From NCBI GenBank assembly GCA_000146045.2, contig BK006945.2, positions 928,001-992,000 on the forward strand: a stretch of 64,000 nucleotides of DNA, written 5' to 3'. The notes beneath the pieces were generated by a model. That model saw nothing but the letters and a program-made list of their open reading frames with translations. It was not told the origin of the DNA and ran no database searches. A program made the position numbers and the translations under genes. Positions within the stretch are counted from its first letter, which is position 1, and every line of letters begins with the position of its first letter. The stretch is from TPA_inf: Saccharomyces. Taxonomy: Eukaryota. This document shows positions 4,314 to 27,009 of the stretch, piece by piece.

Positions 4314-4966
4314 GAGAAACAGAAACGAGGATAATAAAATCGGTTTTTGTATCATCTGGCGGCGATATGGCGCAAGGCTTTAAGTAAACGTCCTATATGG
4401 TACTAACGGGGTTTTATTCCGAATCAAAAGAAAAAGAGATACGAAGTCTCTCTTAGTAAAAAAGTCTTTATGGAAGATTATCGATAATTCGATAATTCTA
4501 CCGACAACAGTGGTTTTGTTTGGCTCAGCAAACGTGCAGCACCATGATCTTGGTAGATTTCTTCTTTACCCTCACCTTCCCCACACCATGTTTGCTTGCT
4601 ACCCGTGTGTAATGCTATCAGCGCGCGTTTCTTTTTTTTTCTTGCTAACATTTTTCAACTTTAAAATGAAACGATGCATGAGTGATAGAGGCATTGAACT
4701 TTAGTAAACAATAGAAATAACCATCGGAGTTATTATTTTTTTCTGCTTATTCTTTGGTCGCAAAAAAGTGTGTTGTATAATTCTTTGGAATATTTATAAA
4801 AACAGGGAATACTCTAACAACAAACGCTAGTGCTTAGCTACTCTTCCGCTGGTACTTCAATATAGCTTGTCACATATTTTTGTCCATTAAGGTCGTTAAA
4901 ACCCGAATAATTTTGTACGATCAGTTTAGTAAAAGAAATACAGTATTCAAAAGCTAACGGTTTATT

Positions 4967-5653: not shown

Positions 5654-5884
5654 CTGAGTGTCGACGTCCTTTTTGTTTTGCCTTATAGCATCTTTTCCTT
5701 TCTTCAAATTTGCATTACACAACTTTAACTCAGTTAAAGAACTTCGTCATTTACTTATTCTTCTTTTTTTTCTTACCCTTCTTTCTCAAATCTTATTTCT
5801 GTATAAAATACGTATTGATTCATTCCATTAATAATAACATATAATAATAGTACTAATTTAAAAACATTGAATATATTTATCGTT

Positions 5885-6253
5885 TTATTTCGAGTTGCGA
5901 TTCTTTTCTATCAGTTGGTACGTCATTTCAAGGATTCGGAGATCCCTATCCACAAGCTCTGCTTCCTTTTGTAATGCTTCGGTATGCCCCATATACGGAG
6001 TGTACTTTTCCAACATATAGTTAATAGGAGAAACACACTTATTTTTAAATGAGTCGTCATGAAGTCGCAATAACTTCTTCAACTGTACATTTAAAATATA
6101 TGATTGATTATTTTCAATTTCTTGCAAAGTCTTCGAGGCTTCTGTTCTATGCGGAGAGTTGATTATTTTGTCGAGTAATCGGTCAAGTTCTTCAGACCTG
6201 TTTGGCATTTTTACGATTATCCAGTTCACACACATTGAGAATGTAAGGAACAT
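5885..6253 (-). CDS. BLS1: BLOC-1 complex subunit (YLR408C), 122 aa
   Basis: 122-aa ORF on the minus strand. Size and synteny match YLR408C/BLS1. Confidence 0.65.
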
Positions 6254-6413
6254 TTATTTATTGTCGATCATTTATTAAATGTGGGAGGGACCCTTTAAGA
6301 ACACTGCAACAAACCCAATAAATAATTCTTGGTTACCCTCTCAAAAAACATCATAGGAAAAAGAAAAATATACAATCTGCCTTTGTTACTAATATACTTG
6401 TTCTATATAATGC

Positions 6414-9233
6414 TCACGCGGTGGTCACAAAAGCTGCCACTCCCATGCAAAACTTCACAAGATCATCTAATCTGTCTTCCTTCTTATGTACATCCTCCCA
6501 ATTTTGAAGAGCAGAGGCAATATCTTGATTCTTGTTGTTAGCATGAATAACATCACCGTGTGCCTTAAACAGTAAGCTCATAAACGTTTCATAAAGTTCG
6601 AAATTTTTATTGCTCTTCAACCCCTGTGTTAACGCGTCGATAAACCACACAATTTCATCAAATGGCTCAAAGGAATTCAATGATCTTATCTCCAAATCCA
6701 CTGCAGCAGGTGAGAAATTTATTAGAGTGGCCAGCAATGATGAATAGTCCTTGGATTGTGAGCCCTCTCGTAATTGCTTTGTGAAATGTGATTCAAACCC
6801 TAATCTTCCTGTAACTTTGAATTTATTCATTTGCTCTTCTGCATCTAACTTCTTTTGTGCTTCTTGATCTCTGCGATGGATTTCTTCTGGTGTTTCATGT
6901 GCTATGCCTTCTCTGACAGAGGCTTCATCCCCAACCTTTTCCCCAGATAGTTGCAAGAAAAATGGAAGCTTTTCTGATTTCTTTGGAGCTTCCTTTGGCT
7001 TAGAACGTTTTCTGATAACATCTAAATGAAGCAATGTGTTCATTTTACTTCTAGGTCCTATTGATAAAGTCAACAGCTCCTTATCAATCTGTTCCAATGA
7101 TGTATAAGTGTTGAAATCAATATCATTTAGGTCTTCTCCTCCATTGCTTTCTAAAGCCCCTGATAACATCGAGTCGTTCCCTCGAACAGATGTGCTAGGT
7201 AACGCCATTCTTGCAAATTCAGACTCATCGATGGTTCTTGTCGATACTGTCTTAAATTGTGCTCTGTTCGTCCAGATGCATATACCATTACCAGTAACAT
7301 GGGTAGTGGCAAGCAAGTCACCATTCGGAGAAAACTTTACATTCGTAGCGACATTATCTACTATGATACCATCGATACATCCTCCGGTTGGAAGATCCCA
7401 CGTTCTAATGGTGGAATCTAGAGAAGCGGAAACAATCCAACGGCCCTCAGGTGAGAAATCAAATGCAGTTATTCTATTACTATGACCCCATAATTGACGA
7501 ACAACTCTTTGAGTAACTGCGTCAATAACAACAATTGATAAGTCGTCTAAAGCCAATGCAAATAGATCGGAAGAACGATGATAAACCATTGCGGTAATAG
7601 GTGCATCCAATTTCAATTTTCCCAACAAGGTTGACTTGTTAAAGTCATAAAAACCAACAATACCGTCTAGTCCACAAGAAACCATTTTACGATTCATACC
7701 ATCTAAGGATATACCGGTGACTGCTCTTTTGTGCAATTTGTATTTTTTACGGAGTATACCACTTTGCATATTATAGATGGTGATAGAGCCGTTAGAAGAA
7801 CCGATGAATCCAAAATTACCACATTGCGACATGGCCACAGATTTAACAAATCCATCATCAGTAGTATCAAAAGTCCACCTGCCAACTCTTTTATTTCGCA
7901 TATCCCAGGTTCTTGCAAACTTTTCATCTTTATGTGCAGTGATAATGTTTTCCCATTCACCTATTCTGGCATTTTCAATTGCAAGAGCCACTATTTCAGG
8001 AAATTTAGACTTAATTGTACTACCACCTACCCTGCCGCCATCTTGTTTCTTGTGTAACCTTTGTGACATTTCTTGCGACTGTGCATCTTTACGCAGAGAA
8101 AAGCTCCATAATGATCTATCTTTGGATGCTGATAGCATGAAGTGTGATTGCGAATCAGCAAACGCAATGTATGAAGGTGGTTGAGAATGACCCCCTCTGG
8201 AACGTAGATATCTTGGCGGTTGAACAACTACATCACCGCTTCCTTGAGATAATGACGGATCGAAAACGTACTCCTTCAGGGAATTGTCACCACCTGATGT
8301 AACAATAATGGGTTGACCATTTAAAAAAGTAGCCTGAGTGACACCACCGTACGATTCTCTATGAATGTTCTTCAAAACGTGTATTCTTGAACGGCGATCT
8401 AAATCATAAAATATTAGATCACCACTGCTCGTTCCCACACTCAAATGAGAAGAACCGTCGGTTCTGAAACTCAATGAGGAGATTCTTGATTGCGGAATCT
8501 TAATTGTGCGGATCCTTTTACCTTTTCTCATATTAAACATAATAACCTCACCGGTCACGGTACCTAGAGCAATAATATCCAGGACTGGAGCGGGTTCAGC
8601 AGTTGTGATTTGGTCTGGAAATTCGTTTGATGTGAATACAAGCTTCCCGGTTCTGACGTTAAAAAGTAAAACGTTAGATTTGGTAACGACAGTTAATTTA
8701 TTCAAATAAGTTGCCAAATGTTGTAAAGACACAATTTCGCCACCTTGAATTTCAGTAACGGTAAGTTTAGTGTAGAATTCTGATGGATATTTATCTTGCG
8801 GATCGGACTTCTTGTATATAAAGATGGAATTGTCGTCGGTGGAAGCGCAAAGATAATCTCCGAATATGCACAAATGTTCGACATTTGCATCAGTTTCTAG
8901 CTCAAGCAAATGTTCCTCAATACCCCTCTTGTAAATACCAACCTTGTTTTCATATGCTGCGTAGACGTAGTGAAAGTGTGCTGATAATGCTACAATTGAG
9001 GATGGTGTTTCTTTCTCGGAAACAAAAAGTAAATGTAAGGTATTCGCATCATATATCTGAAATGTTTTACCAACACACGTTACAATGTAAAAGGTAGATC
9101 CCAATGTACCAGTAGCAAAAGGAACACCATTGCTAACATTACCAATAATCCGGAAAGGGGAAAATATCTTAGAATTTTTCCCTCTACTTCTTACGTCTTC
9201 TTCGACTTTTCTTTTTTTCAAGTCGATAGACAT
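6414..9233 (-). CDS. UTP21: U3 snoRNP / SSU processome WD40 protein Utp21 (YLR409C), 939 aa
   Basis: 939-aa ORF with multiple WD40 repeats and a Utp21-type C-terminal domain. The promoter carries PAC and RRPE ribosome-biogenesis motifs. Confidence 0.85.
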   Translation of the reverse strand: MSIDLKKRKVEEDVRSRGKNSKIFSPFRIIGNVSNGVPFATGTLGSTFYIVTCVGKTFQIYDANTLHLLFVSEKETPSSIVALSAHFHYVYAAYENKVGIYKRGIEEHLLELETDANVEHLCIFGDYLCASTDDNSIFIYKKSDPQDKYPSEFYTKLTVTEIQGGEIVSLQHLATYLNKLTVVTKSNVLLFNVRTGKLVFTSNEFPDQITTAEPAPVLDIIALGTVTGEVIMFNMRKGKRIRTIKIPQSRISSLSFRTDGSSHLSVGTSSGDLIFYDLDRRSRIHVLKNIHRESYGGVTQATFLNGQPIIVTSGGDNSLKEYVFDPSLSQGSGDVVVQPPRYLRSRGGHSQPPSYIAFADSQSHFMLSASKDRSLWSFSLRKDAQSQEMSQRLHKKQDGGRVGGSTIKSKFPEIVALAIENARIGEWENIITAHKDEKFARTWDMRNKRVGRWTFDTTDDGFVKSVAMSQCGNFGFIGSSNGSITIYNMQSGILRKKYKLHKRAVTGISLDGMNRKMVSCGLDGIVGFYDFNKSTLLGKLKLDAPITAMVYHRSSDLFALALDDLSIVVIDAVTQRVVRQLWGHSNRITAFDFSPEGRWIVSASLDSTIRTWDLPTGGCIDGIIVDNVATNVKFSPNGDLLATTHVTGNGICIWTNRAQFKTVSTRTIDESEFARMALPSTSVRGNDSMLSGALESNGGEDLNDIDFNTYTSLEQIDKELLTLSIGPRSKMNTLLHLDVIRKRSKPKEAPKKSEKLPFFLQLSGEKVGDEASVREGIAHETPEEIHRRDQEAQKKLDAEEQMNKFKVTGRLGFESHFTKQLREGSQSKDYSSLLATLINFSPAAVDLEIRSLNSFEPFDEIVWFIDALTQGLKSNKNFELYETFMSLLFKAHGDVIHANNKNQDIASALQNWEDVHKKEDRLDDLVKFCMGVAAFVTTA

Positions 9234-9338
9234 AATGTACTATTCCTAACTCGCTATAGCCTTTTCAGTGTCTTATTCCTTGCTGCTGTTTCGCTGTATA
9301 TTTATTGTGCTTAGGACTTATTAAATTTCATTAGCAAT

Positions 9339-9391
9339 CTCATCGCGAAATTTTTCTCAAAATTTTTCAGTTAAAAAAAAAAAAGCACGTG
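9339..9391 (-). promoter_or_regulatory. PAC (GCGATGAG), two RRPE (AAAATTTT) motifs and a CACGTG E-box in the UTP21/VIP1 divergent promoter
   Basis: CTCATCGC at 9339..9346 is GCGATGAG on the UTP21 strand. GAAATTTTTC at 9347..9356, AAAATTTTTC at 9359..9368 and CACGTG at 9386..9391 lie within 160 bp upstream of the UTP21 ATG. Confidence 0.5.
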
Positions 9392-9540
9392 CTCAAAAAT
9401 GTTTTTAGAAAATCATTTATTTAAGATAGGAAAAATGCAATTAATCATTGAATCAATATGTTCACCACTTAAATTACCCACTGAGCATTTCATACAAATT
9501 CAAAAGCATCTCGTAGCATATTAATATATTGCAGAAGGTC

Positions 9541-12500
9541 ATGAGTGGGATAAAGAAGGAACCGATTGAATCTGATGAGGTTCCTCAACAAGAGACAAAA
9601 AATAACTTACCTAGTGCACCTTCTGAGATGTCACCCCTTTTCCTAAACAAAAACACACAGAAGGCTATGCAATCTATTGCACCAATATTGGAGGGTTTCA
9701 GTCCTAAGACGTCAGCTAGCGAAAATATGTCTTTGAAATTGCCACCTCCCGGTATTCAAGATGATCACAGTGAAGAGAATCTCACCGTGCATGATACTCT
9801 GCAAAGAACCATAAGCACTGCACTAGGAAACGGAAACAACACCAATACAGTTACAACTTCCGGTTTAAAAAAGGCAGACAGTGAATCAAAGTCAGAAGCT
9901 GATCCTGAGGGGCTCAGCAATTCTAACATAGTCAATGATGCAGATAACATAAATTCCATCTCCAAGACCGGATCGCCCCATTTACCTCAAGGAACAATGG
10001 ACGCTGAGCAGACTAACATGGGAACTAACTCTGTACCTACTTCATCAGCTTCTTCACGCAAATCCTCGACTAGTCATCCCAAACCTAGGCTACCCAAGGT
10101 AGGGAAGATTGGGGTATGTGCAATGGATGCAAAAGTCCTTTCAAAGCCAATGAGACACATTTTGAATCGTTTAATTGAACATGGTGAATTTGAAACTGTC
10201 ATTTTTGGAGATAAGGTGATTCTAGATGAAAGAATAGAGAATTGGCCAACTTGCGACTTTTTGATATCTTTCTTTTCTTCAGGATTTCCCCTAGATAAAG
10301 CAATTAAATACGTCAAGTTACGCAAGCCTTTCATTATCAATGATTTAATAATGCAAAAGATTTTGTGGGACAGGAGATTATGTCTACAAGTATTAGAAGC
10401 CTACAACGTTCCAACACCTCCTAGACTGGAAATCAGTAGAGATGGTGGTCCCCGTGCCAACGAAGAATTAAGGGCAAAATTACGTGAGCATGGCGTAGAA
10501 GTTAAACCCGTTGAAGAACCGGAATGGAAAATGGTTGATGATGATACTTTAGAAGTTGATGGGAAAACCATGACTAAGCCCTTTGTTGAAAAGCCCGTTG
10601 ATGGTGAAGACCACAACATTTATATATACTATCATTCTAAGAACGGAGGAGGCGGTCGTCGTCTATTCCGTAAAGTTGGTAACAAGTCTTCTGAGTTTGA
10701 TCCTACTTTGGTTCATCCTCGTACGGAGGGGTCTTACATTTATGAGCAGTTTATGGATACCGATAATTTCGAAGATGTGAAGGCTTATACGATTGGTGAG
10801 AACTTTTGTCACGCTGAAACTAGGAAATCACCTGTGGTTGATGGTATAGTTAGAAGAAATACTCATGGTAAAGAAGTTAGATATATTACTGAGTTATCAG
10901 ACGAAGAGAAAACCATTGCTGGGAAAGTTTCCAAAGCTTTTTCACAAATGATCTGTGGTTTCGATTTGCTTCGCGTTTCTGGTAAAAGTTACGTCATTGA
11001 TGTTAACGGATTTTCTTTTGTAAAGGATAACAAAGCTTACTATGATTCATGCGCCAATATATTGAGAAGTACCTTCATTGAAGCCAAAAAGAAGATGGAT
11101 ATGGAAAAGAAGAATCTGCCCATTATTCGTGAAGAAAAGGAACAAAAGTGGGTATTCAAAGGACTGGCTATCATTATCCGTCACGCGGACAGAACACCAA
11201 AACAGAAATTCAAACATTCATTCACTTCGCCTATTTTTATATCGTTACTAAAAGGTCACAAAGAAGAAGTTGTCATTCGGAATGTAAATGATTTAAAGAT
11301 TGTTCTTCAGGCCTTAAGAATTGCGTTAGATGAAAAAGCAGGAAATCCAGCTAAAATTAAAGTGTTAGCAAACGCTCTAGAAAAGAAACTGAATTTTCCC
11401 GGTACGAAAATACAATTGAAACCGGTTTTAAATAAAGAGAACGAAGTGGAAAAAGTTCAGTTTATTTTGAAATGGGGTGGTGAACCCACTCATTCTGCCA
11501 AATATCAGGCTACGGAACTCGGAGAGCAAATGAGACAAGATTTTGACCTATTGAATAAGAGCATTCTACAAAACATCAAGATATTTTCATCGTCTGAGAG
11601 ACGTGTTCTTCATACGGCGCAGTACTGGACCAGAGCTCTTTTTGGGGCCGATGAATTAGGTAGCGATGAAATCAGTATTAGAAAGGATCTTTTAGATGAC
11701 AGTAATGCCGCCAAAGATTTAATGGATAAGGTGAAAAAGAAGTTGAAGCCACTTTTAAGAGAGGGTAAGGAAGCTCCCCCACAATTTGCCTGGCCTTCAA
11801 AGATGCCGGAGCCATATTTAGTCATAAAGCGAGTGGTTGAATTGATGAATTACCATAAAAAAATTATGGATAACAACTTTGCTAAAAAGGATGTCAACTC
11901 GATGCAAACAAGATGGTGTACTTCTGAAGATCCTAGTTTGTTTAAGGAAAGGTGGGATAAACTTTTCAAAGAATTCAATAATGCTGAAAAAGTCGATCCT
12001 TCTAAAATTTCTGAATTGTATGATACTATGAAGTATGATGCTCTTCACAACAGGCAGTTCCTAGAGAACATATTTGACCCGGGTCTTCCAAATGAAGCTA
12101 TCGCCGATGAACTCGGCAGTCATTCTTTAGTTGACCGATACCCAATTAACGTTCTCGCCAAAAATAATTTTAAGATAATAGACAGTCATAGCATGAACAA
12201 TTCTGGAAAGAACAGTAGTAATAGTGTTGGGTCGTTAGGATGGGTTCTGGAAAGCGGAAAAACATCTACAGCAAGAAACCCCAAATCTTCTTCTCAATTC
12301 GATGAGCCACGCTTTATGCAGTTGCGGGAGCTGTATAAGCTGGCCAAAGTATTGTTTGATTTTATCTGCCCCAAAGAATATGGTATTTCAGATGCAGAGA
12401 AACTGGATATCGGTTTGTTAACTTCGTTGCCTTTGGCAAAGCAAATACTAAATGATATAGGAGACATGAAAAATAGAGAAACTCCAGCTTGTGTTGCGTA

Positions 12501-12981
12501 CTTCACCAAAGAGTCCCATATTTACACTCTATTGAATATCATATACGAATCTGGTATTCCAATGAGAATCGCTAGAAATGCTTTACCAGAACTAGACTAC
12601 TTGTCGCAGATCACTTTTGAACTTTATGAGAGTACGGATGCTTCTGGTCAAAAATCGCATTCCATTAGACTAAAAATGTCTCCTGGGTGTCATACTCAAG
12701 ATCCGTTAGATGTTCAATTAGATGACAGGCATTATATTAGTTGTATTCCAAAGATTTCCCTGACGAAGCATTTGGATATGGACTATGTTCAACAGAAATT
12801 GAGAAACAAATTTACCAGGGTCATTATGCCTCCGAAATTTACACCAGTAAACATTACGAGCCCCAACTTGAGTTTCCAGAAACGCAAAACCAGAAGAAAG
12901 TCGGTATCTGTTGAGAAGTTGAAACGTCCTGCCTCGTCCGGATCTTCATCATCTACCTCCGTTAACAAGACATTAGATTAG
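9541..12981 (+). CDS. VIP1: Inositol hexakisphosphate/diphosphoinositol-pentakisphosphate kinase Vip1 (YLR410W), 1146 aa
   Basis: N-terminal ATP-grasp kinase domain plus a C-terminal histidine acid phosphatase-like domain (RHADRTPKQK motif). The track ORF starts at TTG 9529; the true ATG is at 9541 (MSGIKKEPIESDE...). Confidence 0.9.
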   Translation: MSGIKKEPIESDEVPQQETKNNLPSAPSEMSPLFLNKNTQKAMQSIAPILEGFSPKTSASENMSLKLPPPGIQDDHSEENLTVHDTLQRTISTALGNGNNTNTVTTSGLKKADSESKSEADPEGLSNSNIVNDADNINSISKTGSPHLPQGTMDAEQTNMGTNSVPTSSASSRKSSTSHPKPRLPKVGKIGVCAMDAKVLSKPMRHILNRLIEHGEFETVIFGDKVILDERIENWPTCDFLISFFSSGFPLDKAIKYVKLRKPFIINDLIMQKILWDRRLCLQVLEAYNVPTPPRLEISRDGGPRANEELRAKLREHGVEVKPVEEPEWKMVDDDTLEVDGKTMTKPFVEKPVDGEDHNIYIYYHSKNGGGGRRLFRKVGNKSSEFDPTLVHPRTEGSYIYEQFMDTDNFEDVKAYTIGENFCHAETRKSPVVDGIVRRNTHGKEVRYITELSDEEKTIAGKVSKAFSQMICGFDLLRVSGKSYVIDVNGFSFVKDNKAYYDSCANILRSTFIEAKKKMDMEKKNLPIIREEKEQKWVFKGLAIIIRHADRTPKQKFKHSFTSPIFISLLKGHKEEVVIRNVNDLKIVLQALRIALDEKAGNPAKIKVLANALEKKLNFPGTKIQLKPVLNKENEVEKVQFILKWGGEPTHSAKYQATELGEQMRQDFDLLNKSILQNIKIFSSSERRVLHTAQYWTRALFGADELGSDEISIRKDLLDDSNAAKDLMDKVKKKLKPLLREGKEAPPQFAWPSKMPEPYLVIKRVVELMNYHKKIMDNNFAKKDVNSMQTRWCTSEDPSLFKERWDKLFKEFNNAEKVDPSKISELYDTMKYDALHNRQFLENIFDPGLPNEAIADELGSHSLVDRYPINVLAKNNFKIIDSHSMNNSGKNSSNSVGSLGWVLESGKTSTARNPKSSSQFDEPRFMQLRELYKLAKVLFDFICPKEYGISDAEKLDIGLLTSLPLAKQILNDIGDMKNRETPACVAYFTKESHIYTLLNIIYESGIPMRIARNALPELDYLSQITFELYESTDASGQKSHSIRLKMSPGCHTQDPLDVQLDDRHYISCIPKISLTKHLDMDYVQQKLRNKFTRVIMPPKFTPVNITSPNLSFQKRKTRRKSVSVEKLKRPASSGSSSSTSVNKTLD

Positions 12982-13067
12982 TGATCACACCCAATTTTTA
13001 ATTTAGTAACCCAAAACTAAATAAGTATTTACTCAACTTTTTTTTAAAAAAAAAAAACTTAATTGAA

Positions 13068-13122
13068 TTTTGCTCGCGATCTTTAGGTCCGGAGTTTTCG
13101 TTGAACCCTTAGACGAGCAAAT
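13068..13122 (+). promoter_or_regulatory. Two inverted copper-response elements (Mac1 CuRE, TTTGCTCG) and a TATA box of the CTR3 promoter, now upstream of the Ty2
   Basis: TTTGCTCG at 13068..13075 and its reverse complement CGAGCAAA at 13115..13122. TATATAAAG at about 13174..13182. The Ty2 insertion point is 13192. Confidence 0.55.
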
Positions 13123-13191
13123 TAGCGCCATAAGGATATGCGTCAGAGCACATTAATTAGTGACATATACCTATATAAAGAGCAACCTTCT

Positions 13192-13523
13192 TGTTGGAAT
13201 AAAAATCAACTATCATCTACTAACTAGTATTTACGTTACTAGTATATTATCATATACGGTGTTAGAAGATGACGCAAATGATGAGAAATAGTCATCTAAA
13301 TTAGTGGAAGCTGAAACGCAAGGATTGATAATGTAATAGGATCAATGAATATTAACATATAAAATGATGATAATAATATTTATAGAATTGTGTAGAATTG
13401 CAGATTCCCTTTTATGGATTCCTAAATCCTCGAGGAGAACTTCTAGTATATCTACATACCTAATATTATTGCCTTATTAAAAATGGAATCCCAACAATTA
13501 CATCAAAATCCACATTCTCTTCA
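13192..13523 (+). repeat. Ty2 5' LTR (delta), 332 bp
   Basis: TGTTGG...CA termini. It contains the TYA ATG (13483) and is identical to the 3' LTR. Confidence 0.9.
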
Positions 13524-14799
13524 TGGTAGCGCCTATGCTTCGGTTACTTCTAAGGAAGTCCCATCAAATCAAGATCCGTTAGCCGTTTCAGCTTCCAATT
13601 TACCGGAATTTGATAGAGATTCCACTAAGGTTAATTCTCAACAAGAGACAACACCTGGGACATCAGCTGTTCCAGAGAACCATCATCATGTCTCTCCTCA
13701 ACCTGCTTCAGTACCACCTCCACAGAATGGACAGTACCAACAGCACGGCATGATGACCCCAAACAAAGCTATGGCCTCTAACTGGGCACATTACCAACAA
13801 CCATCTATGATGACGTGTTCACATTATCAAACGTCACCTGCGTATTATCAACCGGACCCACACTATCCGTTGCCACAGTATATCCCACCACTGAGTACTT
13901 CCTCACCTGATCCAATCGATTTAAAAAATCAACACTCTGAAATACCTCAAGCTAAGACAAAGGTGGGAAATAACGTCTTACCACCACACACTTTAACATC
14001 AGAAGAAAACTTTTCTACATGGGTTAAATTTTACATCAGATTTTTGAAGAACTCTAATCTCGGTGACATCATTCCAAATGACCAGGGTGAAATCAAAAGA
14101 CAAATGACTTATGAAGAACATGCGTATATATACAATACCTTCCAAGCATTTGCCCCATTTCATTTATTGCCAACATGGGTAAAACAAATTTTAGAAATTA
14201 ATTATGCTGACATCCTTACAGTCCTTTGTAAAAGTGTGTCCAAAATGCAAACTAACAATCAAGAATTAAAGGATTGGATAGCTCTTGCCAACCTTGAGTA
14301 CGACGGAAGTACATCTGCTGATACATTTGAAATTACAGTCAGTACGATCATTCAGAGGCTAAAAGAAAACAATATCAATGTTAGCGACAGATTGGCCTGT
14401 CAACTAATACTTAAAGGTCTATCCGGTGACTTCAAATACCTACGTAATCAATATCGTACCAAAACGAACATGAAACTTTCCCAATTATTCGCTGAAATTC
14501 AATTAATATATGACGAAAATAAAATCATGAATCTAAATAAACCGTCCCAATACAAACAACACAGCGAATACAAAAATGTTTCTCGCACATCTCCAAACAC
14601 GACTAACACAAAGGTTACAACTCGTAATTATCATAGAACAAATAGTTCAAAACCAAGAGCAGCAAAAGCTCACAATATTGCTACATCTAGTAAATTCTCA
14701 AGGGTGAACAATGATCACATTAATGAATCAACCGTTTCATCACAATACTTAAGCGATGACAACGAACTTAGTCTTAGGCCAGCAACAGAAAGAATCTAA
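13483..14799 (+). CDS. Ty2 Gag (TYA), 438 aa
   Basis: ORF starting inside the 5' LTR, 438 aa, Ty2-type capsid protein. Confidence 0.9.
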
Positions 14800-17700
14800 G
14801 CCAACACACACAATAGACTCGAATGACGAACTACCTGATCACCTTCTTATTGATTCAGGAGCTTCGCAAACGCTTGTCAGATCAGCCCATTATTTACACC
14901 ATGCAACACCCAATTCTGAAATAAACATAGTCGATGCTCAAAAACAAGACATTCCTATAAATGCCATTGGTAATCTTCACTTCAACTTTCAGAACGGCAC
15001 CAAAACATCAATAAAAGCACTACACACACCAAACATAGCCTATGATCTATTAAGTTTGAGTGAGCTGGCTAACCAAAATATTACTGCCTGCTTTACCAGA
15101 AACACTTTAGAAAGATCGGATGGTACAGTACTAGCTCCCATAGTCAAACATGGAGACTTTTACTGGTTATCTAAAAAATACCTAATTCCTTCGCACATTT
15201 CAAAGCTAACAATAAACAACGTCAACAAAAGCAAAAGCGTAAATAAATATCCATATCCGTTAATACATCGAATGCTTGGACATGCTAACTTCCGAAGTAT
15301 TCAGAAGTCTCTTAAGAAGAATGCAGTTACATATTTGAAGGAATCGGATATTGAATGGTCTAACGCTAGCACATATCAATGTCCTGACTGTCTAATCGGC
15401 AAAAGCACGAAACATAGACATGTCAAAGGATCACGACTAAAGTACCAAGAATCATATGAGCCTTTTCAGTACTTGCATACCGATATATTTGGTCCTGTAC
15501 ATCACTTACCGAAAAGTGCACCTTCTTACTTTATATCGTTTACAGATGAGAAAACCAGATTCCAATGGGTGTACCCATTACACGACCGTCGTGAAGAATC
15601 TATCCTCAATGTTTTTACATCGATATTAGCATTTATTAAGAACCAATTCAATGCTCGCGTTCTAGTTATCCAGATGGATCGTGGCTCCGAGTACACTAAC
15701 AAAACTCTTCATAAGTTCTTTACGAACAGAGGTATTACTGCATGCTATACAACCACGGCAGATTCTAGAGCACACGGTGTCGCTGAACGATTAAATCGTA
15801 CTTTATTAAACGATTGTCGCACACTGCTTCATTGCAGTGGTCTACCAAATCATCTATGGTTCTCAGCAGTCGAATTTTCTACTATAATCAGAAATTCATT
15901 AGTCTCACCAAAAAACGATAAATCTGCAAGACAACATGCAGGTTTAGCTGGACTGGACATTACTACTATACTACCTTTCGGTCAACCGGTTATAGTTAAC
16001 AACCATAATCCCGACTCGAAAATACATCCTCGTGGCATTCCAGGTTACGCCTTACATCCGTCACGAAACTCTTATGGCTATATTATCTATCTTCCATCAT
16101 TAAAAAAGACAGTAGATACTACCAATTACGTTATATTACAAGACAACCAATCCAAATTGGACCAATTCAATTATGATACACTCACCTTTGATGATGATCT
16201 CAATCGTTTAACAGCCCATAACCAATCTTTTATTGAACAAAATGAAACAGAGCAGTCATATGATCAAAATACAGAATCTGATCATGACTATCAATCGGAG
16301 ATTGAAATAAACTCTGATCCTCTAGTGAACGACTTCTCGTCCCAATCAATGAACCCCTTACAATTAGACCACGAACCAGTCCAAAAAGTACGTGCACCAA
16401 AAGAAGTTGATGCCGACATATCTGAATACAATATTCTTCCATCTCCTGTACGATCTCGTACACCCCATATCATTAATAAAGAGAGTACCGAAATGGGTGG
16501 TACCATTGAATCAGATACTACTTCACCTAGACACTCGTCTACCTTCACTGCACGAAACCAAAAGCGACCTGGTAGTCCCAATGATATGATTGATTTGACC
16601 TCACAGGATAGAGTTAATTATGGACTTGAAAACATCAAAACTACACGTTTGGGTGGTACGGAGGAACCATATATTCAACGAAATAGTGATACAAATATCA
16701 AATACAGGACTACAAATAGTACGCCCTCAATAGATGACCGTTCGTCCAACAGTGAATCCACTACTCCCATCATCTCCATAGAAACAAAGGCTGTATGTGA
16801 TAATACACCCTCCATTGATACGGATCCGCCAGAATATCGATCTTCTGACCATGCGACTCCTAATATAATGCCTGACAAATCCTCAAAAAATGTTACGGCT
16901 GATTCTATTCTTGACGACCTCCCACTTCCTGACTTAACCCATAAATCTCCTACGGACACTTCTGATGTTTCAAAAGATATTCCACACATACACTCTCGTC
17001 AGACTAATTCCAGTTTGGGTGGTATGGATGATTCTAATGTTCTGACTACTACCAAAAGTAAGAAAAGATCATTAGAAGATAATGAAACTGAAATTGAGGT
17101 ATCCCGAGACACATGGAATAATAAGAATATGAGAAGTCTGGAACCACCAAGATCGAAGAAACGCATAAATTTAATTGCAGCAATAAAAGGAGTGAAATCG
17201 ATCAAACCAGTTCGAACGACCTTAAGATATGATGAAGCAATTACATATAATAAAGACAACAAAGAAAAAGACAGATATGTTGAAGCTTATCATAAAGAAA
17301 TTAGCCAACTATTGAAAATGAACACTTGGGATACAAACAAATATTATGATAGAAATGACATAGATCCTAAAAAAGTAATAAACTCAATGTTTATATTTAA
17401 CAAGAAACGTGATGGTACACACAAAGCTAGATTTGTTGCAAGAGGCGACATTCAACACCCCGATACATATGATTCTGATATGCAATCCAATACCGTACAT
17501 CACTATGCACTGATGACGTCACTGTCAATCGCATTAGACAACGACTATTATATCACACAGCTGGACATATCCTCTGCTTACTTATATGCTGATATCAAAG
17601 AAGAATTATACATAAGACCTCCACCACATTTAGGTTTGAATGATAAATTACTACGTTTGAGAAAATCACTCTATGGTTTGAAACAAAGTGGTGCAAACTG

Positions 17701-18796
17701 GTATGAAACCATTAAATCATATTTAATAAATTGTTGCGACATGCAAGAAGTTCGCGGATGGTCATGCGTATTTAAGAATAGTCAAGTAACAATTTGCTTA
17801 TTCGTTGATGATATGATATTATTCAGCAAAGACTTAAATGCAAATAAGAAAATCATAACAACACTCAAGAAACAATACGATACAAAGATAATAAATCTGG
17901 GTGAAAGAGATAACGAAATTCAGTACGACATACTTGGATTAGAGATCAAATATCAAAGAAGCAAGTACATGAAATTAGGTATGGAAAAATCCTTGACAGA
18001 AAAATTACCCAAACTAAACGTACCTTTGAACCCAAAAGGAAAGAAACTTAGAGCTCCAGGTCAACCAGGTCATTATATAGACCAGGATGAACTAGAAATA
18101 GATGAAGATGAATACAAAGAGAAGGTACATGAAATGCAAAAGTTGATTGGTCTAGCTTCATATGTTGGATATAAATTTAGATTTGACTTACTATACTACA
18201 TCAACACACTTGCTCAACATATACTATTCCCCTCTAGACAAGTTTTAGACATGACATATGAGTTAATACAATTCATGTGGGACACTAGAGATAAACAATT
18301 AATATGGCACAAAAACAAACCTACCAAGCCAGATAATAAACTAGTCGCAATAAGCGATGCTTCATATGGTAACCAACCATATTACAAGTCACAAATTGGT
18401 AACATTTTCCTACTCAACGGAAAAGTGATTGGAGGAAAGTCGACAAAGGCTTCGTTAACATGCACTTCAACTACAGAAGCAGAAATACACGCAGTCAGTG
18501 AAGCTATACCGCTATTGAATAACCTCAGTCACCTTGTGCAAGAACTTAACAAGAAACCAATTATTAAAGGCTTACTTACTGATAGTAGATCAACGATCAG
18601 TATAATTAAGTCTACAAATGAAGAGAAATTTAGAAACAGATTTTTTGGCACAAAGGCAATGAGACTTAGAGATGAAGTATCAGGTAATAATTTATACGTA
18701 TACTACATCGAGACCAAGAAGAACATTGCTGATGTGATGACAAAACCTCTTCCGATAAAAACATTTAAACTATTAACAAACAAATGGATTCATTAG
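14756..18796 (+). CDS. Ty2 Pol (TYB: protease, integrase, reverse transcriptase, RNase H), expressed as a Gag-Pol fusion via +1 frameshift at CTTAGGC (14773..14779)
   Basis: 1346-aa +1-frame ORF with integrase zinc motif ([11 protein letters not shown]...CPDCLIGK), DDE integrase core, RT motif (FVDDMILFS) and RNase H (AISDASYG...TEAEIHA). Confidence 0.9.
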
Positions 18797-18818
18797 ATCT
18801 ATTACATTATGGGTGGTA

Positions 18819-19150
18819 TGTTGGAATAAAAATCAACTATCATCTACTAACTAGTATTTACGTTACTAGTATATTATCATATACGGTGTTAGAAGATGAC
18901 GCAAATGATGAGAAATAGTCATCTAAATTAGTGGAAGCTGAAACGCAAGGATTGATAATGTAATAGGATCAATGAATATTAACATATAAAATGATGATAA
19001 TAATATTTATAGAATTGTGTAGAATTGCAGATTCCCTTTTATGGATTCCTAAATCCTCGAGGAGAACTTCTAGTATATCTACATACCTAATATTATTGCC
19101 TTATTAAAAATGGAATCCCAACAATTACATCAAAATCCACATTCTCTTCA
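18819..19150 (+). repeat. Ty2 3' LTR (delta), 332 bp
   Basis: Identical to 13192..13523 and preceded by the polypurine tract. Confidence 0.9.
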
Positions 19151-19252
19151 CTTCTCCGATAGACTTGTAATTTATCTTATTTCATTTCCTAACACTTTGA
19201 TCGAAGAAGAGGGATAACAACAGACGAAAACACATTTAAGGGCTATACAAAG

Positions 19253-19978
19253 ATGAATATGGGAGGCAGTAGCAGCACTGCTGCCAAAAAAGCGACTTGT
19301 AAAATATCGATGTTATGGAATTGGTATACCATTGACACCTGCTTCATTGCCAGATCTTGGAGAAATGACACCAAAGGAAAATTTGCTGGTTCTTGCATCG
19401 GCTGTTTTGCGCTTGTGGTGGTAGCTCAATGGCTTACTCGTTTTTCAAGGCAATTTGACGTAGAGCTATTAAAAAGACAGAAAATAAAGCATTTAGCTAG
19501 TTACTCGCCAGAGGAGTACGTTGTCAAATGTGGAGAAGAGGATGCTAAATCTGATATAGAAGAACTACAAGGCTTTTACAACGAACCAAGCTGGAAAACA
19601 ACTTTAATTTCCTTACAAAAAAGTTTCATTTATAGTTTTTACGTTTGGGGTCCAAGGAGATTGAACGAGCCAGAAGACGACCTGTTAAAGAAGGTCCTAT
19701 CATGCTGTACATTAATAACGCCAGTGGATTTGTACCCAACTTTTTTGGATCACATGATAAGAGTTACTATTTTCGTATTACAGTGGGGGTTATCTTATAT
19801 CATCATGCTGCTGTTCATGTACTATAACGGCTATATCATTATTAGTTGTTTAATAGGTGCTATCGTTGGTCGTTTCATATTTTGCTATGAACCTCTAGGC
19901 TCATTGGGTGCTAATGGATCAGCCCAGGGTACAGTGAGTTATGATAAAGAGAGTGATGATCGCAAATGCTGCTTGTAG
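19253..19978 (+). CDS. CTR3: High-affinity copper transporter Ctr3 (YLR411W), 241 aa
   Basis: 241-aa Cys-rich membrane protein with three TM segments and a GG4-like motif (CLIGAIVG). It lies immediately downstream of the Ty2, as in S288C. Confidence 0.85.
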   Translation: MNMGGSSSTAAKKATCKISMLWNWYTIDTCFIARSWRNDTKGKFAGSCIGCFALVVVAQWLTRFSRQFDVELLKRQKIKHLASYSPEEYVVKCGEEDAKSDIEELQGFYNEPSWKTTLISLQKSFIYSFYVWGPRRLNEPEDDLLKKVLSCCTLITPVDLYPTFLDHMIRVTIFVLQWGLSYIIMLLFMYYNGYIIISCLIGAIVGRFIFCYEPLGSLGANGSAQGTVSYDKESDDRKCCL

Positions 19979-20367
19979 AAAGACAAAAATGAATAGAGGA
20001 AAGCCGAGAGGTTTGTTTCAAAAATTGACGCCTTCCTCATTTTTTTCATAATTAGCTGGTAAAAGTTACTATTTGTAACGACTGCTAAATAACAAATAAT
20101 TATTCGTGTAAAAATAAATAGCTAATACCACCAGGTGTTCATATTCCATGACTGCATATTTGGGAAACGAGACGGTTTGAACATCCTTAGTTGATGTAAA
20201 ACTATAATAAAAGCTCTATGGGAAGTAAACTATCTGCGGGTCGGGTAAGGAATGATGCTTGCTCGACGTGTAGCGATGAAAAAAGTGAAAACTTATTTGA
20301 ACTCTAGAAAACTGCTAAGATCCTGAACTGATACCGAAGTTAATGACCTTGACCGGTCTTCTGCTGT

Positions 20368-21192
20368 ATGGATTTTAAAGCAAGTGGGACAAAGTTTAAG
20401 AAAACTGGCAAGAAGGTAGTGCCTGCTAAAGCGTTTGAAGAAATTGTTCAGACAAATAGAGATGTTCTGAAAAAATCAGCATTCCTCTCAGATTTACTTG
20501 AAAATTTACAACCGCACCTCAATAACATTAAGAAAATACGATGTGTTGCAATTGGAAATTTCAAGGAGGATTTTCCTGCGACGTACCAATTCGCTCTTCT
20601 CCTAGAGATTACTGATTATATAAAAAGTGAGGATGAAAGGGATGTCGTTGTTTCCCTGTATGATCCAATATTTACTAAAGAAGAGATACAGTACTTGAAA
20701 AGTTTAGGAAGCAAATGGCTGATAGAGGAAGAATTTTCAGAGAACGATGCAATTGATTATGAATCGGTATTATATTTCCTTCCCCATGCTCCTTTGGATT
20801 TAACTGAGAACATACTATCGTCACAGCGACCACACTTATGGCTGGCAAATAATATGATATCACACACCGATAGATACACCAAAGCAAAACTTTGTGAAAA
20901 CTATCCTAATTTAAGCAAGCTAGTTCATTACTTGCAGACTAACGCTCCGCCAGAAGTTAAAAAAGCACATGATGTAGATGGTTTTGCAACATTCATTCCA
21001 AAGAGAAAAAGAAAAAACAGAAACAACTCCTCTAAACTCAAGGTCACACCATCTGATATAGACTATGATTCAATAGCACCGAAGTTTAAGTCCTGCCAAA
21101 TACTCACCGATTTTGATGAAGGAAAGTATTTGAAGGAAAAACCCTGGATCAATTCCTTCTCTGACTTGACGTTACATGCTATAGAGTACTAA
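20368..21192 (+). CDS. BER1: Benomyl-sensitivity protein Ber1 (YLR412W), 274 aa (SRR1-like)
   Basis: 274-aa ORF. Size and synteny match YLR412W. Confidence 0.7.
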
Positions 21193-23155
21193 CATATCAT
21201 TCACTACATAGTACTTTATAACTAAACTGTAACCTTTCAGGGCATCGTAACCTGACGCTTTACCATCAATAACGACACGAGACCGCTTTATCTATGATAC
21301 TGGAACAATCAACATGATTGTTATAAATGTACTCGACAGGATCATGAAAGGATACCAACTTAGTTGCCGGTTCATTGAAATGGAAAGCTCAAGAACGTAT
21401 ACTGAAAGAGAGCGACGTCTACTTTGCCCACAAAAATCTACTCTCTGAATTGAATAGTATTTAGAGATTGCATAATTCAAGCCCTCCTCGAGGAAAGGAT
21501 ATAAATGAAAATACCGTTTTTCCTGCTGATGGTTATCGTCCCTGTCAAGGATACTTCTCGGACTCGAACAACGTTACAGCTCAACTTAAAGAAGGCTAAA
21601 TACGACAAGGGCGCTTGCCCTAAGAGGAACTGTTTCTAAGTTCTAACGAGTGCCTGCGAAGATCGGTTTTTTTTAACTTCGCGGGCGAATTGATAAATAA
21701 AGTTCTTCTTGCAATTTTTTAAGATCAAGGTTGGGGCAAAAAGGACGCAAACGAATGGTTGGGTTAAGAAAGTGGAAAGACCCAAACCTGAAGTTCATTT
21801 AGTTCTTGGCGGAATGAATCATTCGAACGGCGCAATACGCTCGTCAAAGAAGGAGGTATGATTTATGACGGTTTGTGGGTAGCCCTCTAAACACGTGGAG
21901 AGTAACCTTTTCTGTTTAGCGATCCTAGAACTGCGAACAATGGTAGCTATTCGCTTACTCAACAATATTGTTCTTGATTAATGCATTCAAATATGTAACT
22001 TCGTCCCTCATATAAGCGTCTGACGCGTCGTGAAAATTTACCCTCTCAAGAAAATACAAGAGATTACGTAAAATTAGAAACCAAAAGATATGAGTGGAAC
22101 AGACACATATCACCCATATTTCCTTTTCACGTAAGAAAACTTAAGTACTAGTGCGGTGCCTGCGTTAGTGCTTGTCTTTAGGTCAAACAGGTCATCTTGA
22201 CCAACTTAGCTTATAATAAGAATGATAATCGATTACTCTAAATAGCATTCTTTCATTTGCGGCATCTTATAACCCACACACCGCATTTAGGACCCGTTTT
22301 TTTTCTTTTTTTTTTTGTTGAAAAAATTCAACAGTTCCTATTTTTTTCTTTTCATTCTTTTTTTTTGCCTTGCCTTCGTTTCGAGAATTCTTTTTCTTTT
22401 TCTTTAGGTAAGGGACCTTCTCAGCTGAGGCACGGTGGGGTTTGTAATAGTGTCCATTCTGGCACAAATGCATAAGTGATGCTAAAATAGTGATACGTCT
22501 AAACAAAACGGTTTGGATGCCTAGCAAATAGTAAAAAGACTTGAATATATCACTTTTATCACTATGTAAAAAAACTGAGTTATATTATTAAGTTTTTTTT
22601 GAAATGTTCCCGTTTGACGTGTATTTAGTACAGTATGTTCCGTGGATACTGTTTAGGTGCATTTAAGCGCTCCAGAACTCTCCTTTAAATTCCTGCAGCA
22701 CTCCGTCAGTTGCTTCGTAAATCCGCCTGGATACCGCCTTGAAGATTAAAGTTCCCCTCAGTACTCGTTTAGCTTGAATCCACCGCATTATGGCCTGGTA
22801 AATTCCCTAGTTGCTTTTTTCTATACGGCGTCGTCCCTGGAAAAAAAAAACTTGCCTACAGATCTTAGTAGACAAATTTAACTACGTCAATCTATTGTTC
22901 TGCTTAAAAAAAAAGTTGAAATTGTTAAATCCTCAACAAACTTATCGCTTTTCAAGCTGCTGCAATCATAGATCTTACACTTCTACACAGAATTTTTTTT
23001 TCCTGTAAAAAGAACGACAAAATATATAAACCTTTGACAATCTAGCTGCATTTACTCACATTAAGCCTTGAGATTTTCATTTACTTCATAATAGCTTGTA
23101 GATGCGATGCTGATACAGTAAAATAAAAATTCAGTAATACAGTCAAATTATTGCG

Positions 23156-25183
23156 ATGAATTTTAAAATACTCCTCCCGATTTGTGCTTTATTGACACTT
23201 ACAACATTTCTGTTGACCATTATTGCAACTGCGGGTTCTACCTCAAATTATAAGCCAATAACGAACATTTATATCGGTGATGCTGATATATCAAAAATCA
23301 ACGTTACAAAAGTTATGCCACAAGTTGGCCCAATTTTGACTGTGTTAGGTTCTGCTCTAACCGCTCCAAATACAACGGTGGATACCATCTTCGGCGCTCT
23401 TAAGGCAATCGCTTCTACCGAAGCCTTGTCTCCTTTACTGCACTTGTTGTCTAATGCTGCTAACACTTCAGCCACATTATCATCTTTGACACAGTTGGCT
23501 CCAATGGCTTTGCTAGGAACCAATACCGCTACTACCACGACCTTCTCCGCTCTTGATGAGTTATTGACTACCTCTAAAAACACAACCGAACTCTTGGATG
23601 GGTTTAGCACATTGATGTCATCTATGTCAACCAACACTTCTTCTACTTCGGCTTCCTTAGAAAATACTGTTCTAACCCTATTAGTGGATTCGACCAATCC
23701 TATAGGCACTACTGAGTCTTTGATCACTTTAAATAATATGACCACAGAAGAAAAGACAAAATTGTCGCCTGTATTCGAGTTATTCGCAAGTTCCAAGAAC
23801 ATTACTGCCACATGCGATGCGTTAGAAACCATAATGAACTCTACCATTCCAACTTCAACGGTCTCCTCATTGTTTTCTAGTCTAAAAACCAGTCTTGCGG
23901 AAGGTGGCAATGCTACTGAAACTATTATGCAATTAGGCTCCCTCGTTCCTTCGAGTTTAAAACCAGCTGTCCAAGCTGTTGTTACTCTGTTTGATGAAAC
24001 TACATCTCAAAATGTAACATTATCCGTATTGAGCACTATGATTGCCGAAAACATTACCCAATCATCTTCCGCTAAAGCTGCCATGGGTGCTTTGACTGAC
24101 TTGTTGAATTACACTACAAACCAAACAGAGCTGCTAACATCTGTCGAAAGTTTGGCCCTCTCTAAAGAAGCCGCTTCCTCTACTAACCAATTGGTGGCAC
24201 TTGATGAAATCCTTTCTGCAAGTGCTAACGCATCCACAGTTGTTTCCATAATCCCTACTTTGGAATCCCAATTGGCCAATAACACCGTATTACTTAAGTA
24301 CGTTCCATACTTGTTCAGCCTATTAGCTGCGTCAAGCGACCCCGTGTCAAGTTTCTCTTCTCTGGTTAATATCACCAAATGGGCAGAAACTAATGCCGCT
24401 ACATTTATGCCCATGTTGAAAATTTTAAACTCTGCTGTAAACATGACAACTATCACACCAGAACAACTCAAGGAAATGACTCCTTCTATCCTTGAATATC
24501 TACACATCCCTGTCATATACCGTTTGTCCATTTTCACAATGTGTCGTGCTCACTTAAACAGAACAATGTACTCGTGTAGCAAGTCACACGCTGTTCAAAA
24601 CATGGATTTCCGGTCGATTGTTTACAACAACATTGAAGGCTCGGACTTTAAACCTTATATGGATGCCCTGAACATCGGTAAGGACGATTTGCATTTAGAT
24701 GGTGAATTACAAGACAGACAACACATGTATGTCCCAGCAGTGAAAGCAGCTTTAGCTATGAACTTAATGTGCATAATCACATCCTTCTTCTTAATGGTAT
24801 TCTTGTTGCTACTAAGTAGACGTTCCGTGGTGAGTCAAAAATTATGGTTGGCATTGGGCTTTATTTCCTGTTGGATATGTATTTTCAGCGGGTTGGGAAG
24901 CACAATCTTTAGCGTCATCCTTAATATGATGAAATCCGGCTCCAAGAAGGACAATTACGATGTCATTATTTCTGGCTCTTCTCCATTTTATGGCCTAATG
25001 TGGTCTGGATTTGTATTTGCCGTCCTTGTATTTCTCTGCATTGCATACTGCTGGTGGAGCAGCAGAAAGGGAGCTGCCATCGTGGAAGCTGAGAAAGCTG
25101 TTCAAGAAAGTGACTCTACTACCTCAAGAATCATTGAAGAACACGAAAGCCCCATTGATGCTGAAAAAAACTTTGCAAGGTAA
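23156..25183 (+). CDS. INA1: Plasma-membrane SUR7/Pun1-family protein with a large Ser/Thr/Ala/Leu-rich extracellular insert (YLR413W), 675 aa
   Basis: Signal/TM N-terminus. The N-terminal about 45 aa and the C-terminal 3-TM region are clearly homologous to the adjacent PUN1. Size matches YLR413W. Confidence 0.8.
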
Positions 25184-25352
25184 AATAATAAAAAGAAGAT
25201 CATGCAACATCACCCCGTAAATTTTTTCAATTCTCCATCCTTTTAATTTTCTTCATTATAATTTTCTGAATTGTATATAGACAATATATTTTAATCATAT
25301 TTAATATGAAACGGAACACAAAAATTAATTAATAACCTTGCCTTTTTCAAAT

Positions 25353-26144
25353 TCAAATCAATGGTTTTTCCTCAATTGGAGCGTTCGCATAGATGACGGT
25401 GGGCCTCGATCTCACGCTACACCATAGAATGAAATTCAGTAATGCTCCAACGACAGCCCCCCACATCAAACCCTGGTAGTTCCTACCAATGCTCATTGAA
25501 ATACCGTAATCACTATAGTTATGCTTTAGGATGTATTTGATGTATGAGTAAGTGCCCAAACACGAACCTATACTGACTAATAGGGCGGCAAAGGCGAAAA
25601 ATGAAAAAAAGGCACCAAACCACGTTAGCGGCCTTATGTGGATGATCCAGCGCAATACGTTGAACACTAGATTCACAAAGGTCAAGACAATACCAATAAG
25701 AATGGTAATGAACATACACTTGACCAAATTGTTGTAGTATGTCATTTTACTTTTTAGTTTTTCGGGCAAAACAACACTGGCCACGGAATCCATAAGCTCC
25801 AGAGCCTCATTGTTGTTGATATTGTCATACACTAATGACGATAGGTTAAAATTCTGGATACCGTGAGGCGAAGAACATGATTGGATGTTATGCGAGGAGT
25901 CCACTGTACAGTACGACCAAAGCCCTATATTTATATATGAGGGCAGGCCCAACGAAGATAGCGTAGCAGAACTCAAAGAAGGGAGCACCGTCGATACCTT
26001 CATCTGCGACAGATCCAATTCTGCACAGTAAATTTTATTTATGGGACTGTAATTTTTCGTTGATCCTGCGCATGCAACAATGGCTAATATAAGTGCTCCT
26101 AGCGAAAATATAGCTGCAAAAAATAACGTGAAAAAATTCCTCAT
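25353..26144 (-). CDS. PUN1: Plasma-membrane SUR7-family protein Pun1 (YLR414C), 263 aa
   Basis: 263-aa four-TM protein with the conserved GLMWG C-terminal motif. Convergent with INA1. Confidence 0.8.
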   Translation of the reverse strand: MRNFFTLFFAAIFSLGALILAIVACAGSTKNYSPINKIYCAELDLSQMKVSTVLPSLSSATLSSLGLPSYINIGLWSYCTVDSSHNIQSCSSPHGIQNFNLSSLVYDNINNNEALELMDSVASVVLPEKLKSKMTYYNNLVKCMFITILIGIVLTFVNLVFNVLRWIIHIRPLTWFGAFFSFFAFAALLVSIGSCLGTYSYIKYILKHNYSDYGISMSIGRNYQGLMWGAVVGALLNFILWCSVRSRPTVIYANAPIEEKPLI

Positions 26145-27009
26145 GCTTATAGCGTCCTTCGATGATGTGTTTGTTTTTTTCTTAATAGTTCTCTATTGCT
26201 TTAATCAAGTTTCACTACTGCGCAGCGTTGTATGATCTTGATCTAGTTTCTTTTAGTTCTACTTCCAAACAACTGGTCCAGAATGAAACACCACTGGACA
26301 CTCATTGACTACTGAGACATGGAAGAGCAACATTCTCGCGTATATATACTTCTCAGCCAATTTTCCTGCGAGAAGCGCTAAAAATACCGAGCTGGGCTTG
26401 GCTGATAGTACGCCCGATTTGGAAATAACGCTCGAGGCGTGCTGCGTCCTTTTTTGCCTGGCCAGGCCAGGCCGGGTTGTCCCGCACCATTCAACGGCGG
26501 CTATCTGGCGATGTTGAAAGAGGGGGGGAGTGGAGAGGGCTCTGAGGGTCAAGTGGGAGGCTGTGACAGTTCTCATAAGCTGGGCACTGAGATACATGGA
26601 AAGAAATAGGCTGTTCACAGTGTACGTCAATGTGTGGCTGACTAACCGTTAGCGGGGCGGAACCGACATGTCTGGTGCAGTGTATGTAAGAAAAAAAGAA
26701 TGACAATGCATGGCCAAACTTTTGATCTGTGACGTTCGCAAAACGCACTACTTTGCTTTCTGTATGCAATGGGAATGAGGCGTAGCGACATATTAAGAAG
26801 CCTTTTCCATGTGAGGAAGCTTCGCCTTGTTTTCCAGACGCGCTTTTTTTAGGATCAACGAAGAGGAAAAAGGGTTTCACATGTTTCATCTGGAAAAGAT
26901 GGAGACTGAAAAACAAAAAAGCAGAGAAAAGGTCATCCAAGATAGAATAGGGGACCTCGGCTAGGAATCAGGAAGTGTGTTTTGAAAGTCATTCTTTTTT
27001 TTTCAAAAG

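Follow-up and report, generated by a model that had tools for sequence, protein, structure and literature searches.

The question raised by this locus is what has placed an intact gene for the high-affinity copper transporter CTR3 5,964 bp away from its own TATA box and copper-response elements (CuREs), and what this displacement would mean for expression of the gene. The locus lies in a stretch of Saccharomyces DNA of 64,000 nucleotides (contig BK006945.2, positions 928,001 to 992,000), here called the window, and all coordinates below count from its first letter. What separates the gene from its promoter is a Ty2 retrotransposon, and we conclude with high confidence that the interval between VIP1 and CTR3, as found here, is the S288C allele from S. 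cerevisiae chromosome XII, with a Ty2 inserted in the CTR3 promoter. A preliminary description of the window had proposed an intact Ty2 between a CuRE- and TATA-containing region and CTR3, and this was borne out, since the element spans 13192–19150 (5,959 bp), in the same orientation as CTR3, with both its open reading frames (ORFs) and its cis elements intact. The regions 12800–13700 and 18700–20100 were read directly, and every coordinate was verified by script.

The element is bounded by two long terminal repeats (LTRs) of 332 bp each, both on the plus strand, the 5′ LTR (delta) at 13192–13523 with the termini TG...CA and the 3′ LTR at 18819–19150, which repeats every base of the 5′ copy and carries a TATAAA at 18985. 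There were no differences between the two over all 332 bp, and the script comparison showed that the identity ends precisely at the LTR edges; a repeat finder independently reported the first 300 nt of the LTRs at 100%. Immediately outside lie the two copies of the target-site duplication CTTCT, at 13187–13191 on the left and at 19151–19155 on the right (both confirmed by script and without assigned strand), so that the identical LTRs and perfect duplication claimed in the preliminary description were both recovered. The junction between the left flank and the Ty2 consists of GAGCAACCTTCT followed directly by TGTTGGAATA. A perfect direct repeat of 332 bp together with a 5-bp duplication cannot have arisen by chance, and direct LTRs of about 330 bp with TG...CA ends, flanked by a 5-bp duplication, are the form of LTR structure that characterizes Ty2 as a member of the Ty1/copia-type Pseudoviridae.

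The internal sequence gave the same assignment. Abutting the 5′ LTR is a primer-binding site, TGGTAGCGCC, at 13524–13533 on the plus strand, which on the basis of Ty1/Ty2 knowledge we take to be complementary to the 3′ end of initiator tRNA-Met, and directly 5′ of the 3′ LTR is TGGGTGGTA at 18810–18818 (plus strand), presumably the polypurine tract, as assigned from the same knowledge; both were located by script, and both stand beside the LTRs as in other Ty2 elements. The Ty RNA start is presumably GAGGAGAA at LTR position 241, that is at 13432 in the 5′ LTR and at about 19059 in the 3′ LTR. The TYA (Gag) ORF, at 13483–14799 on the plus strand, begins within the 5′ LTR and encodes 438 aa (Pfam TYA, E = 2.9e-205), being an exact match to the Transposon Ty2-LR1 Gag polyprotein (P0C2J4). 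Within its 3′ end the script found the heptamer CTT-AGG-C of the +1 programmed frameshift (14773–14779, plus strand), and the TYB (Pol) reading frame follows at 14777–18796 on the same strand, with protease, integrase and reverse transcriptase/RNase H in the order typical of copia elements. Its ORF of 1,346 aa contained the Pfam domains Pol_BBD, gag_pre-integrs, rve, SH3_retrovirus and RVT_2 as well as the protease barrel, with rve at residues 235–335 preceding RVT_2 at 872–1046. Joining the two frames at the 14773 heptamer gave a Gag-Pol of 1,770 aa, which was an exact match to the Ty2-LR1 Gag-Pol of S288C (NP_058174.3, P0C2J3) and identical to the Ty2-C Gag-Pol at 1757 of 1770 positions (99%). 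The internal sequence is consequently specific for Ty2 as opposed to Ty1, and the exact Gag and Gag-Pol matches to Ty2-LR1 ruled out that the element could be a Ty1 or a Ty1/Ty2 hybrid. Judged from these sequence features, it is an intact, full-length and coding-competent Ty2, namely the S288C copy Ty2-LR1 (YLRWTy2-1). Neither Rfam nor tRNA scans gave any matches inside 13068–19260.

Downstream of the element, the CTR3 ORF occupies 19253–19978 on the plus strand and is intact, encoding a protein of 241 aa (Pfam Ctr, PF04145, E = 5.8e-38) that an exact-sequence look-up found to be identical to S288C CTR3. Its ATG at 19253 lies exactly 102 nt past the last LTR base, which is the distance given in the preliminary description. 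Between the right CTTCT and this ATG, all that is left of the native leader of CTR3, with its initiation region, is 19156–19252 (plus strand).

The origin of the insertion was evident from a comparison set made up of contigs coding for exactly this CTR3 protein, representing ten distinct genomic contexts (L001–L010). In nine of these (L001–L007, L009 and L010) the distance from the VIP1 stop codon to the CTR3 ATG was 307 bp and no Ty2 was present. These 307-bp spacers agreed base for base with window positions 12982–13191 joined to 19156–19252, i.e. with the present interval after removal of the Ty2 and one CTTCT, and their junction reads ...GAGCAAC CTTCT CCGATAG..., with a single CTTCT. The check proposed in the preliminary description, namely alignment against strains lacking the insertion, has thereby been carried out, and the nine independent assemblies were contiguous and equal to the reconstructed site. 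Outside S. cerevisiae the spacer was likewise uninterrupted, measuring 305 bp in S. paradoxus, 316 bp in S. uvarum and 313 bp in S. eubayanus. The insertion is derived, polymorphic within the species and recent. The identity of the LTRs (664 bp in all) agrees with a recent insertion, yet gives only a loose upper bound on its age, and it is the empty sites that carry the earlier claim of a young element. LTR elements are lost through LTR–LTR recombination, which leaves a solo LTR behind, and for this reason it is excluded, to the point where we give it practically no credence, that the insertion was ancestral with the Ty2-free alleles having arisen via loss of the element. Most laboratory references do carry the Ty2, without this being specific support for such a history, but the nine empty sites have a single clean CTTCT, no LTR and exactly the reconstructed pre-insertion sequence, the three outgroup species are uninterrupted, and the LTRs are identical.

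The tenth context, L008 (GCA_016858165.1), carried this Ty2 at an identical junction and differed from the window by 1 mismatch in 16,726 bp. This bears on another concern, as Ty elements often cause misassembly and delta LTRs are common to Ty1 and Ty2, so that the element could in principle be an assembly artefact or a misclassified Ty1 or Ty1/Ty2 hybrid collapsed at this position. With the same element and junction in an independent assembly, exact Ty2-LR1 matches for Gag as well as Gag-Pol, and a perfect target-site duplication, we consider such an error exceedingly improbable. In the Ty2-free strains BLAST alignments gave 40–64 mismatches each to the window over the flanks 5289–13191 and 19151–27978, with 4–35 of these in the left flank of 7.9 kb and 27–38 in the right flank of 8.8 kb (counts taken from BLAST, indels inflating ungapped counts). 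The S288C-like background deduced in the preliminary description is supported by the near-identity to L008 as compared with these 40–64 mismatches, and by exact protein matches for both Ty2-LR1 and Ty2-LR2, a second Ty2 copy in the window that is described further below. Presence of the Ty2 is by itself weaker evidence of background than this overall identity, because the insertion has been described as present in "many lab strains".

Two observations on these alignments may be added. The flank divergence was asymmetric, with 4–10 mismatches on the left in most of the Ty2-free strains and 27–38 on the right, the exception being L001 with 35 in its left flank. A haplotype or mosaic boundary close to the insertion could account for this, as could simply a differing constraint on the two sides. 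The sole difference between the window and L008 was at window position 16238, a C>A change converting CAA (Gln) to AAA (Lys) in TYB. A variant given as "ChrXII YLR410W-B 944238 Q<->K" has been listed as specific to a BY4742-derived mutant (PMC6106823), and if 16238 is the 944238 site, the window begins at chrXII 928,001, and that "mutation" may be a pre-existing difference between strain and reference or an effect of mapping between Ty2 copies.

On the other side of the element, the CTR3 promoter persists as a conserved block at 13068–13186 (plus strand) that contains both CuREs and the TATA box. In an alignment of four species (S. cerevisiae, S. paradoxus, S. uvarum and S. eubayanus) 99 of the 119 positions in this block (83%) were invariant, as compared with about 31% of positions in the leader between the insertion point and the ATG, and the Ty2 insertion point coincides with the downstream edge of the block. 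The distal CuRE, TTTGCTCG at 13069–13076 on the plus strand, follows the Mac1-type consensus, its 7-nt core TTTGCTC (13069–13075) being invariant in all four species and its eighth base being A in S. eubayanus. The proximal CuRE is TTTGCTCG on the minus strand at 13114–13121, corresponding to the plus-strand 8-mer CGAGCAAA with the core at 13115–13121; this core, GAGCAAA, was also invariant in four of four species, with the flanking C replaced by T in S. uvarum. The two elements form an inverted pair with 39 bp between their 7-nt cores (13076–13114). The preliminary description had rightly placed an inverted pair of Mac1-type motifs upstream of the insertion, with start coordinates (13068 and 13115) that were each 1 nt off, the actual ones being 13069 and 13114. 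It had also given a TATA box near 13174, which is TATATAAA at 13172–13179 on the plus strand; this TATA box ends 12 nt before the insertion point, and its ATATAAAGAG showed no change across the four species.

With two copies of the TTTGC(T/G)C(A/G) consensus, both at sites conserved between species, the promoter has the minimum number expected of a Mac1-regulated CuRE promoter. Counting motifs in the window was not used as support for the CuREs, because TTTGCTC is not enriched there, and cross-species conservation and the literature were used instead. Four Mac1 targets including CTR3 have been reported to have two perfect Mac1 consensus sites each (PMC3514956), a paper that cites Labbe et al. 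1997 on Mac1 binding and on the need for the sites in induction upon copper starvation, and elsewhere the Mac1 consensus is given as TTTGCTCA-like (PMC11563359). The inverted pairing 39 bp apart, the conserved promoter block and this literature together raise both CuREs above chance. As judged from its sequence, the promoter is of the two-CuRE Mac1 type, with the Mac1 dependence of CTR3 taken from the literature.

What would the insertion then do to CTR3? The insertion point follows the TATA box by 12 nt and precedes the ATG by 102 nt, and the element has moved both Mac1-type CuREs, together with the TATA box, 5,964 bp away from the start region and coding sequence of CTR3. Transcription start sites in yeast are normally found 40–120 nt downstream of the TATA box. 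With the TATA box ending at 13179 before the insertion, this spacing would place the native CTR3 start sites within 19156–19252, at 40–110 nt beyond the TATA box, and the Ty2 would therefore sit between the two. Mac1 would then be unable to drive CTR3 in copper starvation, whereby the intact ORF should be effectively silent, with copper-regulated uptake depending on CTR1. The Ty2 RNA would be expected to terminate in the 3′ LTR, insulating CTR3 from upstream transcription, and any residual CTR3 RNA should at most be weak, copper-independent and derived from the 3′ LTR at about 19059. Physical separation of promoter and gene is the best-supported mechanism of silencing.

The insertion could instead have rewired the gene without silencing it, if the 3′ LTR served as a portable promoter from which CTR3 were usefully expressed in a copper-independent manner. 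The 3′ LTR is indeed a full copy with both the TATAAA and the canonical start motif, but the promoter of a Ty 3′ LTR is known to be weak without the downstream activating sequences of TYA. Any transcript begun in the 3′ LTR would also carry a 35-codon upstream ORF (uORF) ahead of the CTR3 ATG. The published expression data speak in the same direction. In RNA-seq, CTR3 was much lower in the Ty2-bearing strain BYZ1 than in YJS329 (PMC3484046), its expression was stated to be abolished by the insertion (PMC7956333), it was found unexpressed in BY4741 (PMC11747415), and abolished or absent expression from the Ty2 allele in BY4741 was also described in a preprint (bioRxiv 10.1101/350652). In addition, CTR3 of S288C was alone among the strains tested in being unresponsive to low copper, explained by "an inactivating Ty2 transposon" (PMC3514956). 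With these results at hand we find useful expression of CTR3 from the LTR quite improbable, and prefer silencing through displacement of the promoter.

The origin of this knowledge is Knight et al. 1996 (Genes Dev 10:1917), which, as relayed by papers citing it, found that the insertion abolishes copper-regulated CTR3 expression in S288C-derived strains. Six papers cite that study for it (PMC3514956, PMC3484046, PMC7956333, PMC11747415, PMC2515631 and PMC3556494), and the link that the preliminary description drew to a published S288C case of a Ty2 masking CTR3 could in this way be traced.

Some points weigh against silencing by displacement of a Mac1-driven promoter. The TTTGCTC 7-mer had 13 matches in the window against 11.5 expected, a number reached in 38 of 100 shuffles, and thus showed no enrichment in the window. 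The entire stretch between the two CuREs was conserved as well, and conservation consequently does not single out the CuRE motifs from their surroundings. That the Ty2 separates the TATA box from the start sites is, we infer, what the geometry implies, and the literature covered by our search, which comprised papers other than the primary one, did not state where the insertion lies with respect to these two features. The silencing step itself rests entirely on the cited papers, and these are mixed in their wording, as expression is referred to as "abolished", as "much lower", as a "loss of copper regulation" and, once, as "driven by the transposon promoter".

The uORF mentioned above is chimeric, as it opens at the TYA start codon of the 3′ LTR and continues into leader sequence of CTR3 (19110–19217, plus strand), with 35 translated codons and a stop codon at 19215–19217, 35 nt ahead of the CTR3 ATG. 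Every transcript begun in the 3′ LTR and extending into CTR3 would contain this uORF, which would be predicted to depress CTR3 translation and to expose the RNA to nonsense-mediated decay (NMD). Read-out RNAs initiated in LTRs have been found to be sensitive to NMD (PMC1657058), and CTR3 is among the potential NMD targets in studies of laboratory strains (PMC9674712). The residual CTR3 RNA of S288C-derived strains may be such a chimera started in the 3′ LTR, and it is plausible that the NMD sensitivity of CTR3 is a property of the Ty2 allele and not of native CTR3. The orphaned CuRE/TATA module, in turn, faces the 5′ LTR of the Ty2 at a distance of 12 nt and in the same orientation, and copper starvation may drive read-in transcription of Ty2-LR1 specifically, as one single copper-regulated element. 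Taken jointly, copper-driven read-in of Ty2-LR1 and an NMD-prone, LTR-started CTR3 chimera are a tentative proposal that we regard as less likely than not. Searching under YLR410W-A/B and YLRWTy2-1 we found no literature on copper-responsive transcription of Ty2-LR1; these names appeared in connection with probes, primers and one knockout without phenotype, and PMC1929147 makes no mention of the Ty2.

With regard to known systems, the allele studied here has the same locus, element and junction as the S288C CTR3::Ty2 allele (YLRWTy2-1, with YLR410W-A and YLR410W-B upstream of YLR411W). There was no detectable difference between the two, and Gag, Gag-Pol and CTR3 were exact matches; what we describe is the very allele already published and known, and the window appears to be S288C reference sequence. 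Ty insertions in the 5′ regions of genes transcribed by RNA polymerase II (Pol II), such as his4-912, his4-917 and the ROAM class, inactivate or re-regulate the gene. What these share with the CTR3 allele is that a Ty in the promoter parts the upstream elements from the gene and imposes the transcription signals of the element. The CTR3 allele is unlike ROAM in that the Ty2 has the same orientation as the gene, separates the TATA box from the start region, and results in lost expression, whereas mating-type-dependent activation is typical of the ROAM alleles.

Insertions of Ty1 and Ty2 upstream of genes transcribed by RNA polymerase III (Pol III) belong to the same family, and the second Ty2 copy in the window, Ty2-LR2, is an example thereof, being 98.8% identical to Ty2-LR1. 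It is found at 48258–53700 on the minus strand (5,443 bp), 201 bp from a tRNA-Asn(GTT) gene at 47983–48056 and thereby in the usual target zone. For Ty2-LR1, in contrast, the closest tRNA gene is 15.8 kb away; this element sits in a Pol II promoter and represents a minority class of insertion. The Gag of Ty2-LR2 was an exact match to "Ty2-LR2, putative pseudogene", and about 507 bp of TYB that are present in Ty2-LR1 (positions ~4918–5424 of LR1) are missing from it. Its LTRs differ at 3 sites and its flanks are GAACC and AATTT; this lack of a target-site duplication suggests past recombination between Ty elements. As the two copies are inverted with respect to each other and 29 kb apart, they could in principle give rise to an inversion.

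A further trace of such elements was a degenerate delta-like LTR fragment at 35322–35538, with 68% identity to LTR positions 107–322 and lying about 270 bp from a tRNA-Leu(TAA) at 34972–35055, which is probably an old solo-LTR remnant. Among proteins in the same 90% cluster as the Ty2 proteins there were Gag/Pol fragments labelled as Streptococcus uberis and Parabacteroides merdae, most likely owing to contamination of those assemblies with yeast DNA.

The genes around the insertion are otherwise in their conventional arrangement. VIP1, at 9541–12981 on the plus strand, encodes an inositol pyrophosphate kinase/phosphatase of 1,146 aa (Pfam PPIP5K2_N, RimK and His_Phos_2), and the ancestral intergenic region of 307 bp begins at its stop codon. 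VIP1 was called with 1,146 aa and in unchanged relative position in all of L001–L010. The downstream neighbour of CTR3 is a gene for an SRR1-domain protein, as identified with Pfam. The order VIP1, CTR3 and SRR1-domain gene is kept in the four species, and this synteny, together with the Ctr domain, identifies the gene as CTR3.

As to what the allele means for yeast biology, the uORF on transcripts initiated in the 3′ LTR would, if the proposal is true, explain why CTR3 is listed among NMD targets, which would be a reinterpretation of data sets and not a discovery. The locus offers a clear textbook case of LTR-retrotransposon insertion, young and polymorphic, whose empty site can be verified. 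It also underlies a strain caveat that is already widely recognized, namely that CTR3 is effectively silent in S288C-derived strains such as BY4741 and BY4742, and because of this, ctr1-delta phenotypes, studies of the copper regulon, expression compendia and cross-species comparisons differ between these laboratory strains and wild or industrial strains.

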